Assembly (NCBI GenBank): GCA_963707435.1
Contig: CAVPPF010000005.1
Coordinates: 390,832 to 454,831 of the forward strand
Length of the DNA stretch: 64,000 nucleotides
Origin: an uncultured Actinomycetota bacterium
GTDB lineage: Bacteria > Actinomycetota > Acidimicrobiia > Spongiisociales > UBA4744
Direction: 5' to 3'
How positions within the stretch are numbered: the first letter of the stretch is position 1; every line of letters begins with the position of its first letter. The notes under the pieces are model-generated. The model did not search any database, was not told the origin of the DNA, and was given only the letters and a program-made list of their open reading frames with translations. A program made the position numbers and the translations under genes. Below are positions 45,274-49,327 of this stretch, in pieces.

Positions 45274-46113
45274 TCAGCCCAGTTCGATCGTCAGCCCTGC
45301 CTTGCCGGGCACGAAATCGAAGGGCAGTTCCCGGGTCAGCCGAATCCGCTCGGCGATCTGATCGAGCAGGACGTCGGAATGAGCGGGATCGTGATGGAAG
45401 GTGATCAGCCGGCCCACCTTGGTCAAGGTGGCGAAATCCAGGGCGTGATTGAACGAACTGTGGCCCCATCCCACTCGCCGCTCATACTCCTGGCCGGTGT
45501 ACTGAGCATCATGGATCAACACATCGACACCGTTCGCCAGGTCAAATCCCGACGTCCACTCTGGTGTATCCGGGAAGGACCCGACGCCAAGGGCCGGCTC
45601 ATGGTCCGGGAGATACGCCAGCACGCCGTCGTCTGCTTCGATGCGAAACCCGACGGTCGGGCCGGGATGTGTGATCAACTCGGCTTGTATCGTGAGACTG
45701 CCCAGAGTGAACGATTCCGGCGGTTGTATCTCGTGGAGCATCACGCTGGGCAGGTCCCGCAGCATGACCGGGAACAGGGGCGGCGAGAGATAGCGGGTGA
45801 GACGCTGATGAAGCCCGAGCGTCGTAGAACCCGGGCCCCAGATGTGGACTTCGATATCCGCGTCAAACAGAGGAGCGAAGAACCCGAGACCCTGGATATG
45901 GTCCATGTGGAGGTGGGTGAGCAGAATGTCGATTCGTTCCGTACCCGCAGGTACCTGTTCTCCGATCGGACGGATTCCGGACCCGGCATCGAGCACCACA
46001 AGCTGACCGTCCGGTCCCCGCACCTCGATCGCTGCGGTATCTCCCCCGTATCGGACCGTGTCCGGTCCGCCACTCGCCAACGAACCCCGCGTGCCCCACA
46101 GCGTCGCTTTCAC
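45274..46113 (-). CDS. MBL-fold metallo-hydrolase (HxHxDH). Candidate class II-like cyclic-nucleotide phosphodiesterase or RNase Z-like.
   Basis: ILLTHLHMDHIQGLGFF motif. Paralog of 48497..49327. Confidence 0.6.
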   Translation of the reverse strand: MKATLWGTRGSLASGGPDTVRYGGDTAAIEVRGPDGQLVVLDAGSGIRPIGEQVPAGTERIDILLTHLHMDHIQGLGFFAPLFDADIEVHIWGPGSTTLGLHQRLTRYLSPPLFPVMLRDLPSVMLHEIQPPESFTLGSLTIQAELITHPGPTVGFRIEADDGVLAYLPDHEPALGVGSFPDTPEWTSGFDLANGVDVLIHDAQYTGQEYERRVGWGHSSFNHALDFATLTKVGRLITFHHDPAHSDVLLDQIAERIRLTRELPFDFVPGKAGLTIELG

Positions 46114-46505
46114 GGGGTGGGCTGCTGCCAGAACATCGCCACGGCGCCCAGATGGCGGCCGCCCTGGCCTTCGACCGGAAAAGCGGTGATCGCCAGGACC
46201 CGCCAGACGTCATCAAGGCCCCTGACGCGGATCGTGTCGTGGCTCGGCACCCGCTCGACGAGAGCAACAACGATGGGCAGCTTCTCGTTCGGATAGGGGG
46301 TCCCGTCCAGCCCGGTCGTTTGGAAATGCTCGGCCAGCTGATCCGCATGGATCTCGCCCGCCTCCTCGAATCGCACTCCCAGCAGGCTTTCGGCAGGCTC
46401 GTTGTAGTAGAGGAGATTGCCCGCATCGTCGACCAGCCAGATAGGAATGGCGAGGTAGGAAGCCCACTGCTTCAGCAGAATGAGCTCAATGGGCTGCTGG
46501 GCCAA
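46110..46505 (-). CDS. Small PAS-domain protein
   Basis: 131-aa ORF. Its stop overlaps the start of the downstream MBL gene (operonic). PAS-like pattern (LVDDAGNLLYYNEPAESLLG). Confidence 0.45.
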   Translation of the reverse strand: MAQQPIELILLKQWASYLAIPIWLVDDAGNLLYYNEPAESLLGVRFEEAGEIHADQLAEHFQTTGLDGTPYPNEKLPIVVALVERVPSHDTIRVRGLDDVWRVLAITAFPVEGQGGRHLGAVAMFWQQPTP

Positions 46506-46572
46506 GTCTCCTCCCCGGTCAGATTCAGTTTTCCATCATGACGCATCACGGCCATCTCCGCACGCGGTTCTT

Positions 46573-48444
46573 TCAGGCGCCTCGCCGTACACCACCGGCC
46601 GCCCAGCCGGCGATGCGGTCGAGCCCACCTTCTTCCAAGACACGAACCGCATTGCGGTACCCGGCCTCGACCAGCCGGTCCACGGCCGAGAAATCGAGCA
46701 ATCCGACGTCGTCGACCTGAGGATGGAATACCACGTCGGCGCGCTGCTCCATCGCCTTCGACGACAACACGCTTCCCACCTCGGTTGTGCGGAGCAGGAT
46801 GTCGACGAGACCGGGGAGTTCCATAGCGGATGCAAACGGGTTGAAACGCCTGCCGAACACTTTCCACCCCGAGAGCACGCCATGCTGCGGCAGATCCTCG
46901 GACCGGAGCGAGAACTCGCCCCGCAAACTGACGGCCAGCACCGGCCCCTCGCCGTTCAACGACCTCATGACATCGACCGGCAGGTTGTTCATCACGGCCC
47001 CATCGACCAGCACATCGCCATCCCCCAGGTTGACCGGGGGAAACAGGCCGGGGATGGAGATGCTGGCTCGCACGGCTTGCCAGACCGGCCCGGTCGTATG
47101 GATCTGCAGGTGACCTTTGGTCAAGTTCGAAGAAACACAGAAGAAGCGATGCCAGAGATCTTCGATGGACAGGTCGCCAAAACCGTCACGCAACATGGAG
47201 ACGATTCGTTTGCCGCCGGTCAGCGCAGCGGCCGGGGCGGTCAGATCGATCGGACTTCCCCGATCGATGAGATACCGTTGCACCGCCGCCCGGATGGCGA
47301 TGGCATCGTCACCACGGGCCCGGAAAGCCGCCATCAGGGCACCAAAGCTGGCTCCCCCAATGACATCCACCGGAATGCGAGCTTCCTCGAAAGCCTGCAT
47401 GACACCGATGTGTGCCAAACCCCGCGCTCCCCCACCACTCAGGACGAGACCGACCGACCGACCGGAGAGCGATCGAGCCAAACGACCGAAGTCCTCGGAA
47501 GAGCCATCGCGAACATGGTGATGCGCTCCGGCCTCCCGGCCGCTCCGCCACCGGGCCGTCCCCGTCGGGGTGGCAGTGCCGGGCGGGTGGACGATGACGA
47601 GTTCGGTCGTCGCCCGGGCGTCCGACCGATCCCTGAATAGGCTCGATTCAATCTCCCCGACATCCGGAGAACTCTCCGCCCGGGCAACCAGCAACACTCG
47701 GTCTGCCTGGCGCAGACACCTTTCGGTCCAGGGGCTCAACCGGCGCCCGGCGACGTAGACGACCATGTCGTGAGCGGCTTCCTGCCGGTTCAGCCACGTG
47801 ACCAACTCGAAATCGGCGGGTGACCCCGGCAACGAACGAACATGATCCATGCCCAACTCGGCCTCGATCAACCCTGCGGAGATGGTCGCCACGGTGCCGC
47901 CGTCGCGCAAAGCATCCTCGAGTTGGACGGCGAACCCATCCAGCGATCCGTCGCCGCCGGCCGAAACGATGGCGAGCGAGCGGACCCGGCCCGCTGCGGA
48001 CCCGTGGTGTATCGACCTGGCAAGACGGGCAACCATCAGCTTGGCAATCTTCATCGTCACAGTCGGCTCTTCCCGGCCAACCTGCTGGAAGTCTTCCCGG
48101 GAGATTTCGAGGAGATGAGAATCCCGCACCGCCTTGACCGTCGCCGAATGCGGCTCATCGCTGAGCAGAGCCATCTCGCCGACCACTTCTCCGGCAGATA
48201 CCTCGCCGACCGCTGCTTGAGATCCATCGGGTTGAACCGCAAAGACCCGGAGGCGGCCGCTCACCACTGCATAGACCGCATCGCCGGGCCCGCCCTCGCG
48301 CATGAGCGTGGAACCGGCCCGCAGATGGACTGAAGCAGCCCGGGCTGCCAACGCCTTCCGGCTGGCTTCAGGAAGCCCGGCGAACAGGCCAATGCCTGAG
48401 AGCAGTTGCAGGGCATCGTTTGGCACGCCGATCGGTTCGCTCAA
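46573..48444 (-). CDS. Cyclic-nucleotide-binding domain plus patatin-like phospholipase (NTE-family protein)
   Basis: CAP-type cNMP-binding segment (GEVVGEMALL...). Patatin glycine-rich loop GLVLSGGGARG. Nucleophile elbow GASFG. Catalytic DGA/G motif (VDGAVMNN). Likely TTG start at 48444 after gaaaggggga. The track ORF's N-terminal extension looks non-coding. Confidence 0.7.
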   Translation of the reverse strand: MSEPIGVPNDALQLLSGIGLFAGLPEASRKALAARAASVHLRAGSTLMREGGPGDAVYAVVSGRLRVFAVQPDGSQAAVGEVSAGEVVGEMALLSDEPHSATVKAVRDSHLLEISREDFQQVGREEPTVTMKIAKLMVARLARSIHHGSAAGRVRSLAIVSAGGDGSLDGFAVQLEDALRDGGTVATISAGLIEAELGMDHVRSLPGSPADFELVTWLNRQEAAHDMVVYVAGRRLSPWTERCLRQADRVLLVARAESSPDVGEIESSLFRDRSDARATTELVIVHPPGTATPTGTARWRSGREAGAHHHVRDGSSEDFGRLARSLSGRSVGLVLSGGGARGLAHIGVMQAFEEARIPVDVIGGASFGALMAAFRARGDDAIAIRAAVQRYLIDRGSPIDLTAPAAALTGGKRIVSMLRDGFGDLSIEDLWHRFFCVSSNLTKGHLQIHTTGPVWQAVRASISIPGLFPPVNLGDGDVLVDGAVMNNLPVDVMRSLNGEGPVLAVSLRGEFSLRSEDLPQHGVLSGWKVFGRRFNPFASAMELPGLVDILLRTTEVGSVLSSKAMEQRADVVFHPQVDDVGLLDFSAVDRLVEAGYRNAVRVLEEGGLDRIAGWAAGGVRRGA

Positions 48445-48496
48445 CCGTTCCCCCTTTCGACGCCGCAATATAGGGAACAGGCGTGGACCGTGTCGC

Positions 48497-49327
48497 TCAG
48501 AACTCGATCTGCATACCCTCGAAGGCGGCATCGGTAGCCGGGAACTCCTCCCGGGCAGAGGCAACAATGGCGTCGATCTCCTCGTCCGACCGGTGCGGAT
48601 CGTGGCTGACCAGGACCAGCCGTTTCGCTCCCGTCTCGAGCGCCGCCTCGACGGCGTGATGACGGGTGCTGTGACCCCAGCCGACGTAGAAGACGGGATA
48701 CTCGTCCGGGGTGTACTGCGCGTCGTGAATGAGCACGTCGACTCCGGAGGCGAAGCTGTTCAGGGTCTCGTCGGAGGCCGGATCGCCCCGCTCGTAATCG
48801 GTGGCCAGGACAATCCTGCGGTCACCGTTGGCGACGCGAAAGGCGGTGACCCCCTGCGGATGGTGGAGGGTTGCCGTGTCGATCGTGAGCCCGCCTACCG
48901 AAAACGGAGCGTCGGCTACGTCAACGTACTCCTTCGCAGCAGCCGTCTCGAAGATCGAAACGGGGAACCAGGGGGGACGAAGCGCCCCCTCGACGGCCTC
49001 CCTGACCCCCATCCCGTTCCAGGCGTGGCCGTAGAACGTGAACCGGTTGCGATCGTCGTACAGCGGCGGGAAGAACAAGATCCCCTGGAGGTGGTCCCAG
49101 TGATAGTGGGTCAGGAAGACATGGAAGTCGATCCCGTCCGCCGGGATCACCAGATCCTGGGCGAGGGCGCTGATCCCCGTTCCCCCGTCGATGATGACCC
49201 GCACGTCGCTTCCGGTATCGATGTCGATGCAGAGGGTGCGGCCACCGTACTTGTCGGTGGTTGGTCCGGACACGGGCATGGACCCTCTGACTCCCCGAAA
49301 CGTGAGCGTGACCGGACGATTCGTCAT
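48497..49327 (-). CDS. MBL-fold metallo-hydrolase (second copy)
   Basis: VFLTHYHWDHLQGILFF motif. RBS ggaagg before ATG 49327. Confidence 0.6.
   Translation of the reverse strand: MTNRPVTLTFRGVRGSMPVSGPTTDKYGGRTLCIDIDTGSDVRVIIDGGTGISALAQDLVIPADGIDFHVFLTHYHWDHLQGILFFPPLYDDRNRFTFYGHAWNGMGVREAVEGALRPPWFPVSIFETAAAKEYVDVADAPFSVGGLTIDTATLHHPQGVTAFRVANGDRRIVLATDYERGDPASDETLNSFASGVDVLIHDAQYTPDEYPVFYVGWGHSTRHHAVEAALETGAKRLVLVSHDPHRSDEEIDAIVASAREEFPATDAAFEGMQIEF

Follow-up and report, generated by a model that had tools for sequence, protein, structure and literature searches.

The esterases of the NTE family, which include the mycobacterial Rv2565, Rv3728 and Rv3239c as well as NTE/PNPLA6, PNPLA7, Nte1 and SWS, combine one or more cyclic nucleotide monophosphate (cNMP)-binding domains with an NTE P-loop-like domain and a patatin domain carrying the motifs GGGxRG, GxSxG and DG[AG]. 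Lipases of this family are found from bacteria to humans, where PNPLA6 is linked to neuropathies, and all of them have cNMP-binding domains; to our knowledge neither the ligand nor the role of these domains has been established, and no regulation by a nucleotide has been demonstrated for any member. Here, we describe an NTE-family lipase encoded on a 64,000-nucleotide stretch of DNA from an uncultured bacterium of the Acidimicrobiia (contig CAVPPF010000005.1; the whole stretch is called the window below). The linkage of this lipase with an LtrA-family membrane protein, with a metallo-β-lactamase (MBL)-fold hydrolase of a type named here MBL-A, and with a soluble adenylyl cyclase-like STAND cyclase is conserved. 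From domain content and gene neighbourhoods we lean towards the view that these genes form an Acidimicrobiia-specific cNMP signalling unit, which would control a cytoplasmic patatin (lyso)phospholipase.

The cNMP-binding NTE esterases of mycobacteria were reportedly predicted by McCue et al. in 2000, and we know of no report that places a cyclase and a phosphodiesterase beside the mycobacterial genes. PMC10865251, citing Knapp & McDonough 2014, lists these proteins as cAMP-related esterases. The lipase of the window, which is likened to Rv2565 by domain logic and not by sequence, differs from the described members in having one cNMP domain, no transmembrane segment and no major facilitator superfamily fusion, in being part of a cassette with LtrA, MBL and cyclase genes, and in having His in place of the phosphate-binding Arg.

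The atypical class II phosphodiesterases, Rv1339, CpdA from Corynebacterium glutamicum and YhfI from Bacillus subtilis, are PF12706 proteins with the signature [T/S]HxHxDH and are relatives of RNase Z (PMC9293780, Thomson et al. 2022); of these, YhfI prefers cAMP and cGMP (PMC9117128, Hobbs et al. 2022). The MBL-fold proteins of the window share with them the PF12706 fold, the signature, a size of ~250–280 residues, the absence of the RNase Z arm and a template-modelling (TM) score of ~0.8 to YhfI/BA1088, and the genomic association of window-type MBLs with cNMP genes fits the function of this group. They differ in showing only 16–23% identity to YhfI, in scoring 45–47 bits against a cut-off of 400 with the model NF041851, and in forming families of their own. 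As far as we know, no coupling to a PAS protein such as that of the second hydrolase, MBL-B, has been described for the known atypical class II phosphodiesterases.

At the level of domains, the cassette also resembles the Pycsar and CBASS systems (PycC with cNMP-binding TIR or TM effectors; a CD-NTase with the patatin CapV) and Apyc1, since a cyclase, a cNMP-domain effector, a patatin and an MBL-fold phosphodiesterase are found in both. It differs from them in that the putative phosphodiesterase is host-encoded within the cassette, the cyclase is a soluble adenylyl cyclase-like tandem STAND protein, and the locus lies in core synteny with LtrA. The cyclase of the window shares with ADCY10 the class III tandem catalytic domains, the AAA_16/STAND NTPase and the TPR repeats, and with the mycobacterial Rv0386-type proteins a class III catalytic domain with an AAA_16/STAND NTPase behind it. 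The latter carry only one catalytic domain, and a LuxR-type helix-turn-helix where the window's cyclase has TPR alone. Each part of the cassette comes from a known family, and a circuit of cyclase, receptor and phosphodiesterase is a classical design. A literature search found no description of a cyclase/cNMP-patatin/MBL cassette, of the LtrA linkage, of the PAS–MBL pair, or of these MBL families as cNMP-associated.

The operon and its lipase

The list of open reading frames (ORFs) and the reading of their junctions show four head-to-tail ORFs on the minus strand at 45274–49327, in the order MBL-A, lipase, PAS-like protein and MBL-B. The intergenic distances along the operon are 52, 67 and −4 nucleotides, in agreement with the initial annotation, which had described four co-directional genes with short gaps or overlaps. 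The G+C content of the window is ~64%. The genes of the operon and the two further genes of the proposed unit are:

48497..49327, minus strand: MBL-A, an MBL-fold Lactamase_B_2 metallo-hydrolase and putative cNMP phosphodiesterase; 276 amino acids, ATG start at 49327 with GGGAAGG just upstream
46573..48444, minus strand: NTE-family lipase with cNMP-binding, NTE_Ploop and patatin (lyso)phospholipase domains; 623 amino acids, soluble, TTG start at 48444 with AAGGGGGA just upstream
46110..46505, minus strand: small stand-alone PAS-like protein, translationally coupled to MBL-B; 131 amino acids, TTG start at 46505 with GGGGAGGAG just upstream
45274..46113, minus strand: MBL-B, an MBL-fold hydrolase and paralogue of MBL-A; 279 amino acids, GTG start at 46113 overlapping the stop codon of the PAS gene (GTGA)
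49468..50670, plus strand: LtrA-family polytopic membrane protein; 400 amino acids, PF06772 with 281.8 bits, GTG start after GAGAGGAGG
34377..38156, plus strand: class III nucleotide cyclase; two catalytic domains in tandem, an AAA_16 (STAND-type) NTPase and TPR repeats

The start of the 623-residue lipase is confirmed by the database protein P0001, which is of equal length and 100% identical. A 664-residue form given by the ORF lister (start at 48567) was rejected as beginning too far upstream; it would overlap MBL-A by 71 nucleotides. In the source annotations MBL-A appears as a 260-residue form that starts at M17. A divergent region of 140 nucleotides separates the operon from LtrA, and on the 3′ side MBL-B is followed by a gap of ~160 nucleotides and then by the gene of a secreted beta-helix protein, which has a ribosome-binding site of its own. 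Scans for promoters (one promoter-like site vs 0.7 expected) and terminators (one terminator-like site vs 2.7 expected) gave results at chance level, and the transcript boundaries are therefore drawn from spacing only. Rfam revealed no RNA element in 44000–51500. The four operon proteins and the cyclase contain no transmembrane-like segment and are predicted to be soluble, while LtrA is polytopic.

All three domains of the lipase score well above their Pfam cut-offs: cNMP_binding (PF00027) with 86.9 bits vs 27.5, NTE_Ploop (PF24179), located between the sensor and the patatin, with 107.9 vs 27, and Patatin (PF01734) with 116.5 vs 27.7. The catalytic motifs GGGARG (residues 337–342), GASFG (Ser366) and DGA (Asp481) are invariant in an alignment of 15 sequences with 38–77% identity. 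The matches of the cNMP domain in the PDB include PKA-R, Epac, MloK1 and CRP. The description of the protein in the initial annotation, a cNMP domain coupled to a complete patatin lipase, is borne out by these scores and by the intact motifs, with the reservation that the cNMP site is not fully canonical, His standing for Arg. The NTE_Ploop middle domain and the divergent LtrA gene had been overlooked there. A secreted or toxin lipase was considered and rejected, as there is no signal peptide and no transmembrane segment, and the sensor domain is cytoplasmic.

Gene neighbourhoods of the lipase

One of the close relatives is the L001 locus, where the lipase is 74% identical to that of the window. 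The order there is a response regulator, divergent LtrA, MBL-A, lipase, PAS and MBL-B, with a 1263-residue cyclase of the same architecture as the window's located 89 nucleotides downstream on the same strand. L007 contains the response regulator, divergent LtrA, lipase, PAS, MBL-B, two genes for large secreted proteins and a convergent cyclase; it is arranged like the window except that MBL-A is lacking. The more distant loci have a shorter cassette. L168 (47% identity) has divergent LtrA, MBL-A, lipase and a convergent cyclase 34 nucleotides away, together with a second cyclase; L169 (45%) has divergent LtrA, lipase, MBL-A and a convergent, overlapping cyclase; and L174 has divergent LtrA, MBL-A, lipase and a convergent cyclase. 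In L003 (47%) divergent LtrA, lipase and MBL-A are followed by a cNMP-binding histidine kinase. Partial views of the same order are given by L003, L008, L088, L090, L098 and L099, and four short metagenome contigs (66–99% identity) carry parts of the series response regulator, divergent LtrA, MBL-A and lipase. These four were the only close relatives in a metagenome scan with a single-protein query, the rest being unrelated proteins with cNMP domains.

Of all neighbours that the lipase has in this lineage, LtrA is the most constant, and its gene is found in the divergent orientation in L001, L003, L007, L008, L034, L088, L098, L099, L168, L169 and L174. The protein has ~9–10 transmembrane-like segments, and its homologues are 392–400 residues long. 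The second constant element is MBL-A: in the distant loci the MBL beside the lipase is always of this type, with 256–363 bits to MBL-A vs 132–145 to MBL-B.

The third element, the cyclase, is 985–1268 residues long in its orthologues, abuts the cassette in L001, L168, L169 and L174, and lies behind the secreted-protein insert in L007. In the window it matches Guanylate_cyc (in two stretches), AAA_16 and TPR in Pfam and is the sole Guanylate_cyc protein among the larger ORFs scanned at ~25.6–63.2 kb. The best PDB relative of its catalytic region is the mammalian soluble adenylyl cyclase ADCY10, and the metal-binding motifs FVDISGF and GGDALL are present together with GDxVNxAAR. This protein is probably the signal generator of the cassette. 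The initial annotation had placed it next to the operon as part of a self-contained module of cyclase, sensor-effector and degrader. The idea of such a module is supported by the conserved neighbourhoods of L001, L168, L169 and L174, and without MBL-A by that of L007; in the window the cyclase is not adjacent.

Partner genes were sought by a phmmer screen of 98 loci with NTE-type lipases from Proteobacteria, Nitrospirota, Acidobacteriota, Gemmatimonadota, Chloroflexota, Myxococcota and other Actinomycetota. Any partner was found in 13 of the 98, of which 12 belong to the lineage of the window by similarity and by the shared LtrA/MBL context; the named members of these 12 are metagenome-assembled genomes (MAGs) of Acidimicrobiia or Actinomycetes. 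The thirteenth, L063 from Polyangiales, has a weak cyclase match only. As the partners are otherwise confined to the window's lineage, the lipase family is ancient and widespread, while the cassette is lineage-specific. A scan of genome contigs returned at least 600 rows, in which the listed relatives have 31–47% identity; it shows the breadth of the NTE family and not the patchiness of the cassette within Acidimicrobiia.

The combination of a cyclase with an effector that has cNMP-binding and membrane-attacking patatin domains matches the logic of Pycsar/CBASS-type abortive infection, in which the STAND-TPR cyclase would sense phage, the patatin would destroy the membrane and the phosphodiesterases would damp the background. 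PADLOC gave 63 bits to PycTIR for the cNMP domain, ~50 to PycC for the cyclase and 13.5–24.8 to CBASS lipase effectors. The NTPase-TPR sensor architecture also resembles that of antiviral STAND proteins, in both the window and L007 a variable block of large secreted proteins lies between operon and cyclase, and in L174 a gene for a 192-residue protein with PycTM (PF18967, the Pycsar effector TM domain) is located directly beside LtrA and the cassette (4953–5531, plus strand). We nevertheless regard a defence system as improbable. PADLOC returned no system-level match and no hit for the MBLs, the PAS protein or LtrA, and the literature search found no Pycsar effector with a patatin domain or with a self-encoded MBL phosphodiesterase. 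The invariant partner LtrA is a housekeeping-type membrane protein. The window and L007 share the order solute-binding protein, LiaF-like protein, FabH, response regulator and LtrA, a sign of vertical inheritance, and the cassette persists over lipase identities of 45–100%. The conserved flanks, this vertical pattern and the constancy of LtrA therefore favour a housekeeping signalling role. The analogy to Pycsar/CBASS drawn in the initial annotation does not extend beyond shared domains, the locus being in core-genome synteny and not in a defence island. Similarly low odds are given to a suicide or alarm system of Pycsar-like design that is fixed in the chromosome. In it, the cyclase would sense an invader or an envelope insult, the cNMP would turn on the patatin to take the membrane apart, and the MBLs, one of them PAS-gated, would set the threshold for firing; if true, cNMP effectors of immunity or stress that carry their own off-switch would constitute a new family.

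The metallo-hydrolases and the PAS protein

MBL-A and MBL-B match Lactamase_B_2 (PF12706) with 63 and 70.6 bits, correspondingly, and are 35% identical to each other (BLASTP, E 8e-46). Both contain the full set of binuclear metal ligands (H, H, D, H, H, D, H), invariant in their families, and the [T/S]HxHxDH signature. In MBL-A the signature THYHWDH together with D47, H156, D177, H219 and H242 is invariant across 32 homologues, and in MBL-B THLHMDH and the metal ligands are invariant in the family. The two proteins also share the motifs GxRGS, PPxFPV, HDAQY...GWGHS and HHDP, which are their own. The [T/S]HxHxDH signature is not discriminating, because the RNase Z of B. subtilis fits it too.

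With NF041851, a model of cNMP-degrading phosphodiesterases, MBL-A and MBL-B score 44.9 and 47.5 bits against the cut-off of 400, and the alignment is nearly full-length for MBL-B. The RNase Z models give 50.8 and 61.8 bits (TIGR02651, cut-off 292.95) and 49.1 and 54.4 bits (NF000801, cut-off 252). By these profiles both proteins are about as far from RNase Z as from the phosphodiesterase model. The RNase Z matches are confined to the C-terminal ~90 residues or split into two stretches, and they lie 4–6 fold under the equivalog cut-offs. Profile positions ~154–208, which form the flexible tRNA-binding arm of RNase Z, have no counterpart in either MBL: in alignments with the RNase Z model and 1Y44, the match stops at ~153 and resumes at ~209–220, and the MBLs have only ~18–30 residues there. 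Their length is 276–279 residues vs 306–320 for RNase Z. In a profile search against PDB sequences, RNase Z is at the top by E-value over only ~90 residues, while BA1088 and YhfI align over the full length.

The AlphaFold2 models are confident (pLDDT 94.7 for MBL-A and 89.7 for MBL-B). The top Foldseek match of MBL-A in the PDB is YhfI (6KNS, E 2e-17, TM score 0.83), and those of MBL-B are BA1088 (1ZKP) and YhfI (TM score 0.77–0.81), with RNase Z, PhnP and ELAC1 close behind. Both proteins fit the description of atypical class II phosphodiesterases and are orthologous to no characterised member.

Several other identities were rejected. A true RNase Z was set aside on account of the missing flexible arm and the sub-threshold scores, and PhnP on account of its score (TIGR03307, 23.1 and 37.5 bits vs a cut-off of 272) and the lack of phn context, no phn gene being seen among the ORFs scanned at ~25.6–63.2 kb. 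Neither protein matches the Apyc1 family PF23023 at E ≤ 0.01; the Apyc1 structures 7U2S and 7U2R are at Foldseek rank 37 or lower, and faint precomputed PF23023 matches exist on some MBL homologues. There is no match to PF02112, the classical class II phosphodiesterases, of which yeast PDE1 (4OJV) is found with E 1.4e-3 by profile and at Foldseek rank 48. A beta-lactamase would be of the wrong clade.

The gene neighbourhoods of MBL-A are consistent with a cyclic-nucleotide substrate. Genes of this type adjoin NTE and/or cNMP-binding genes in L001, L003, L008, L088, L090, L098 and L099, as well as in L158, L168, L169, L170, L172 and L174. Four loci (L170, L172, L173 and L174) had been picked by similarity to MBL-A, without regard to the lipase. 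Three of them (L170, L172 and L174) have a cNMP-binding gene immediately next to MBL-A and a Guanylate_cyc gene no more than 4 kb away, while L173 has no relevant gene nearby; this sample is a small one, in which L170 and L172 are homologous in their arrangement. These two carry MBL-A, cNMP-binding histidine-kinase genes and a REC-Pyr_redox gene, with a Guanylate_cyc-TPR gene within 4 kb. Two more loci were reached by way of the cNMP domain. In L158 an MBL-A-like gene is divergent from a gene for a cNMP_binding-Ser/Thr kinase, and L113 contains a 770-residue stop-to-stop ORF (8603–10912, plus strand), in which this MBL type is fused to REC, cNMP_binding and GGDEF domains. The occurrence of MBL-A beside cNMP receptors of four architectures and class III cyclases makes a good contextual case for the nucleotide as its substrate.

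The fusion in L113 may join the degradation or sensing of a cNMP to the synthesis of cyclic di-GMP. The arrangement around the histidine kinase constitutes a second recurrent cassette (L003 9965–13844, L170 8001–13783, L172 7001–12807), in which MBL-A is accompanied by a convergent cNMP_binding-HisKA/HATPase_c kinase, a REC-Pyr_redox regulator similar to thioredoxin reductase and a Guanylate_cyc-TPR cyclase. It resembles a cNMP-gated two-component system with a redox enzyme as output.

The PAS-like protein has sub-threshold Pfam matches to PAS_9/PAS_8 (22 bits vs a cut-off of 27) and is labelled "PAS domain-containing protein" in the source databases. Its family comprises 382 representative relatives at E ≤ 1e-10, many with two PAS domains in tandem. 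Genes of the MBL-B family are normally paired with this small PAS gene, and a PAS gene followed by an MBL-B-type gene with a 4-nucleotide overlap is found in the window and in L001, L004, L006 and L007. The pair also occurs without the lipase, after aconitase genes in L004 and L005 and between smc and ftsY in L006, and it is absent from L003, L168, L169 and L174. PAS and MBL-B are hence an independent, widespread two-gene unit, which joined the cassette only in the clade of the window. The two MBLs, presented in the initial annotation as a flanking pair, are indeed paralogues, but they are not equivalent.

Whether MBL-B takes part in the circuit depends on how this association is read. The PAS gene and MBL-B may be a passenger unit that by chance came to lie behind the lipase in one clade, with MBL-A as the only hydrolase of the circuit; we consider this possible, though the less probable reading. 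The lipase-free copies in L004, L005 and L006 and the otherwise complete cassettes L003, L168, L169 and L174 that lack the pair are in line with it, as is the enormous size of the MBL-B family (at least 8000 homologues, with ~60% identity across phyla, even in Methylomirabilota). On the other hand, the window, L001 and L007 have kept the pair at one and the same place, and further relatives are suggested to carry MBL-B with the lipase (P0005/P0127, P0006/P0137 and P0012/P0150). MBL-B is the sole MBL of the L007 cassette, which suggests that it may substitute for MBL-A. The presence of the pair coincides with the Arg to His change in the lipase, and MBL-A, MBL-B and the cNMP-fused MBL of L113 share the signature motifs. 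Gene context offers weak support for a putative role of MBL-B as a cNMP phosphodiesterase.

In several MAGs of Acidimicrobiia, members of the 90%-identity clusters of PAS and MBL-A have consecutive NCBI accessions (HKZ29117/HKZ29116 and MGZ8754162/63), which implies that these genomes lack the intervening lipase or have it annotated as a pseudogene.

The proposed circuit and the remaining genes

In the proposed circuit, the cyclase would produce a 3′,5′-cNMP, most likely cAMP, once its NTPase/TPR part is triggered. The nucleotide would bind to the N-terminal cNMP-binding domain of the lipase and act through the NTE_Ploop linker domain to free the Ser366/Asp481 site of the patatin, which would then deacylate phospholipids or lysophospholipids of the inner leaflet. 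The resulting turnover of membrane lipids is possibly coordinated with the divergently expressed LtrA. MBL-A, as a binuclear-metal phosphodiesterase similar to YhfI and Rv1339, would hydrolyze the cNMP and reset the system. In the clade of the window, the added PAS sensor and MBL-B could form a second, plausibly ligand-gated phosphodiesterase that would serve as a condition-dependent sink.

Several observations weigh against such a circuit. The phosphate-binding cassette of the lipase, GEMALLSDEPHSATV, retains Gly-Glu, Ser and Ala and has His in place of Arg, so that the complete pattern GE...A...R[ST]A, in which the Arg is directed to the cyclic phosphate, is broken at residue ~99. The cNMP domains of eukaryotic NTE proteins are not known to bind cAMP. 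The window's cyclase gene is transcribed convergently to the operon, 7.1 kb from the end of MBL-B, with the ORFs at 38177–45172 between. Both MBLs score slightly higher with the RNase Z models than with NF041851, and in L006 the PAS and MBL-B pair is found in the context rnc-smc-PAS-MBL-ftsY, with no cNMP gene. The neighbourhood counts come from few, phylogenetically related loci. Finally, 85 of the 98 NTE-type loci have no partner at all, and most members of the family therefore work without a dedicated module. The gene order, which the initial annotation had named as a check, is kept within the Acidimicrobiia lineage and is not found in these 85.

A rival reading has no cNMP circuit, the genes being neighbours only. 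The MBLs would then process RNA or other phosphodiesters, as RNase Z/ELAC-like, PhnP-like or 2′,3′-cyclic phosphodiesterases do, and the lipase would be a housekeeping lysophospholipase associated with LtrA, its cNMP-like domain being of a non-nucleotide kind. The cNMP-like domain of the eukaryotic NTE may be such a non-nucleotide regulatory module. This reading draws on the His in the nucleotide site, on the housekeeping contexts of PAS and MBL-B such as L006, on the many NTE loci without a cyclase or MBL, and on the JGI names of the MBL relatives, "ribonuclease BN" or "phosphoribosyl 1,2-cyclic phosphodiesterase". We consider it unlikely in view of the partial RNase Z matches, far under the cut-offs and without a counterpart of the arm, and of the lack of a phn operon. 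Moreover, MBL-A repeatedly abuts genes for a cNMP-binding lipase, histidine kinase and Ser/Thr kinase and for class III cyclases, this MBL type is fused to a cNMP domain in L113, and the orthologous lipases outside the closest clade retain the Arg.

The Arg is present in 72 of the 82 sequences in which this position could be scored, and the His in 10 of the closest relatives; P0002, a relative at 86% identity, carries Arg. The His variant is found in the lipases with PAS and MBL-B in the operon (the window, L001 and L007), whereas the Arg is found in those of the cassettes without this pair (L003, L168, L169 and L174). This correlation is suggestive, though it comes from a single clade. The change from Arg to His in the window's clade suggests a retuned affinity for the nucleotide.

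Under the signalling reading, the linkage of lipase, cyclase and hydrolase is the strongest genomic hint here that the cNMP domains of NTE proteins respond to a real cyclic nucleotide. The compact, soluble set of five proteins opens the role of these domains to in vitro testing, for which the Arg/His pair offers a natural comparison. The group of atypical class II phosphodiesterases would be extended to two large uncharacterised MBL families (at least 4000 and 8000 clusters, respectively, at 90% identity), of which one has a dedicated PAS partner. On a reading milder than that of a suicide or alarm system, the cassette would be the first natural proof that NTE cNMP domains are true cyclic-nucleotide receptors, with cAMP linked to membrane-lipid turnover through LtrA. 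A control of phospholipid deacylation by cAMP together with LtrA would, if true, also connect to the link between cAMP and fatty-acid metabolism in mycobacteria (PMC9995111).

The genes beyond LtrA are:

50658..51128, minus strand: CheY-like single-domain response regulator, Response_reg with 76.5 bits, convergent with LtrA
51209–51892, plus strand: DUF3159 gene
51896–52345, minus strand: DUF427 gene
52463–53548, plus strand: FabH gene

The response regulator is found beside LtrA in L001, L007, L088 and L098 and is absent from L003, L168, L169 and L174. It may lie outside the module, as a neighbour conserved only in the closest relatives.

The interval between the operon and the cyclase (38177–45172, minus strand) encodes a giant secreted protein in at least five overlapping ORFs:

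44702–45172, minus strand: secreted-protein ORF
43686–44708, minus strand: secreted-protein ORF
40714–43764, minus strand: secreted-protein ORF
39738–41000, minus strand: secreted-protein ORF
38177–40087, minus strand: secreted-protein ORF

The protein has a signal peptide (~45114), a beta-helix-like N-terminus, a Peptidase_C25-like region and Ig-like domains. Its (PLSAI)n pentapeptide repeats correspond to 15-nucleotide tandem repeats at 42868–43002 and 43500–43710. At the same position, L007 has one gene of 1922 and one of 539 residues, 45% identical to the secreted protein of the window. The copy in the window may contain frameshifts, either by gene decay or by assembly error. Beyond the cyclase, a 1989-residue ORF (25602–31571, minus strand) with RTX calcium-binding nonapeptide repeats (HemolysinCabind, 149 bits) encodes another very large protein of the secreted type.

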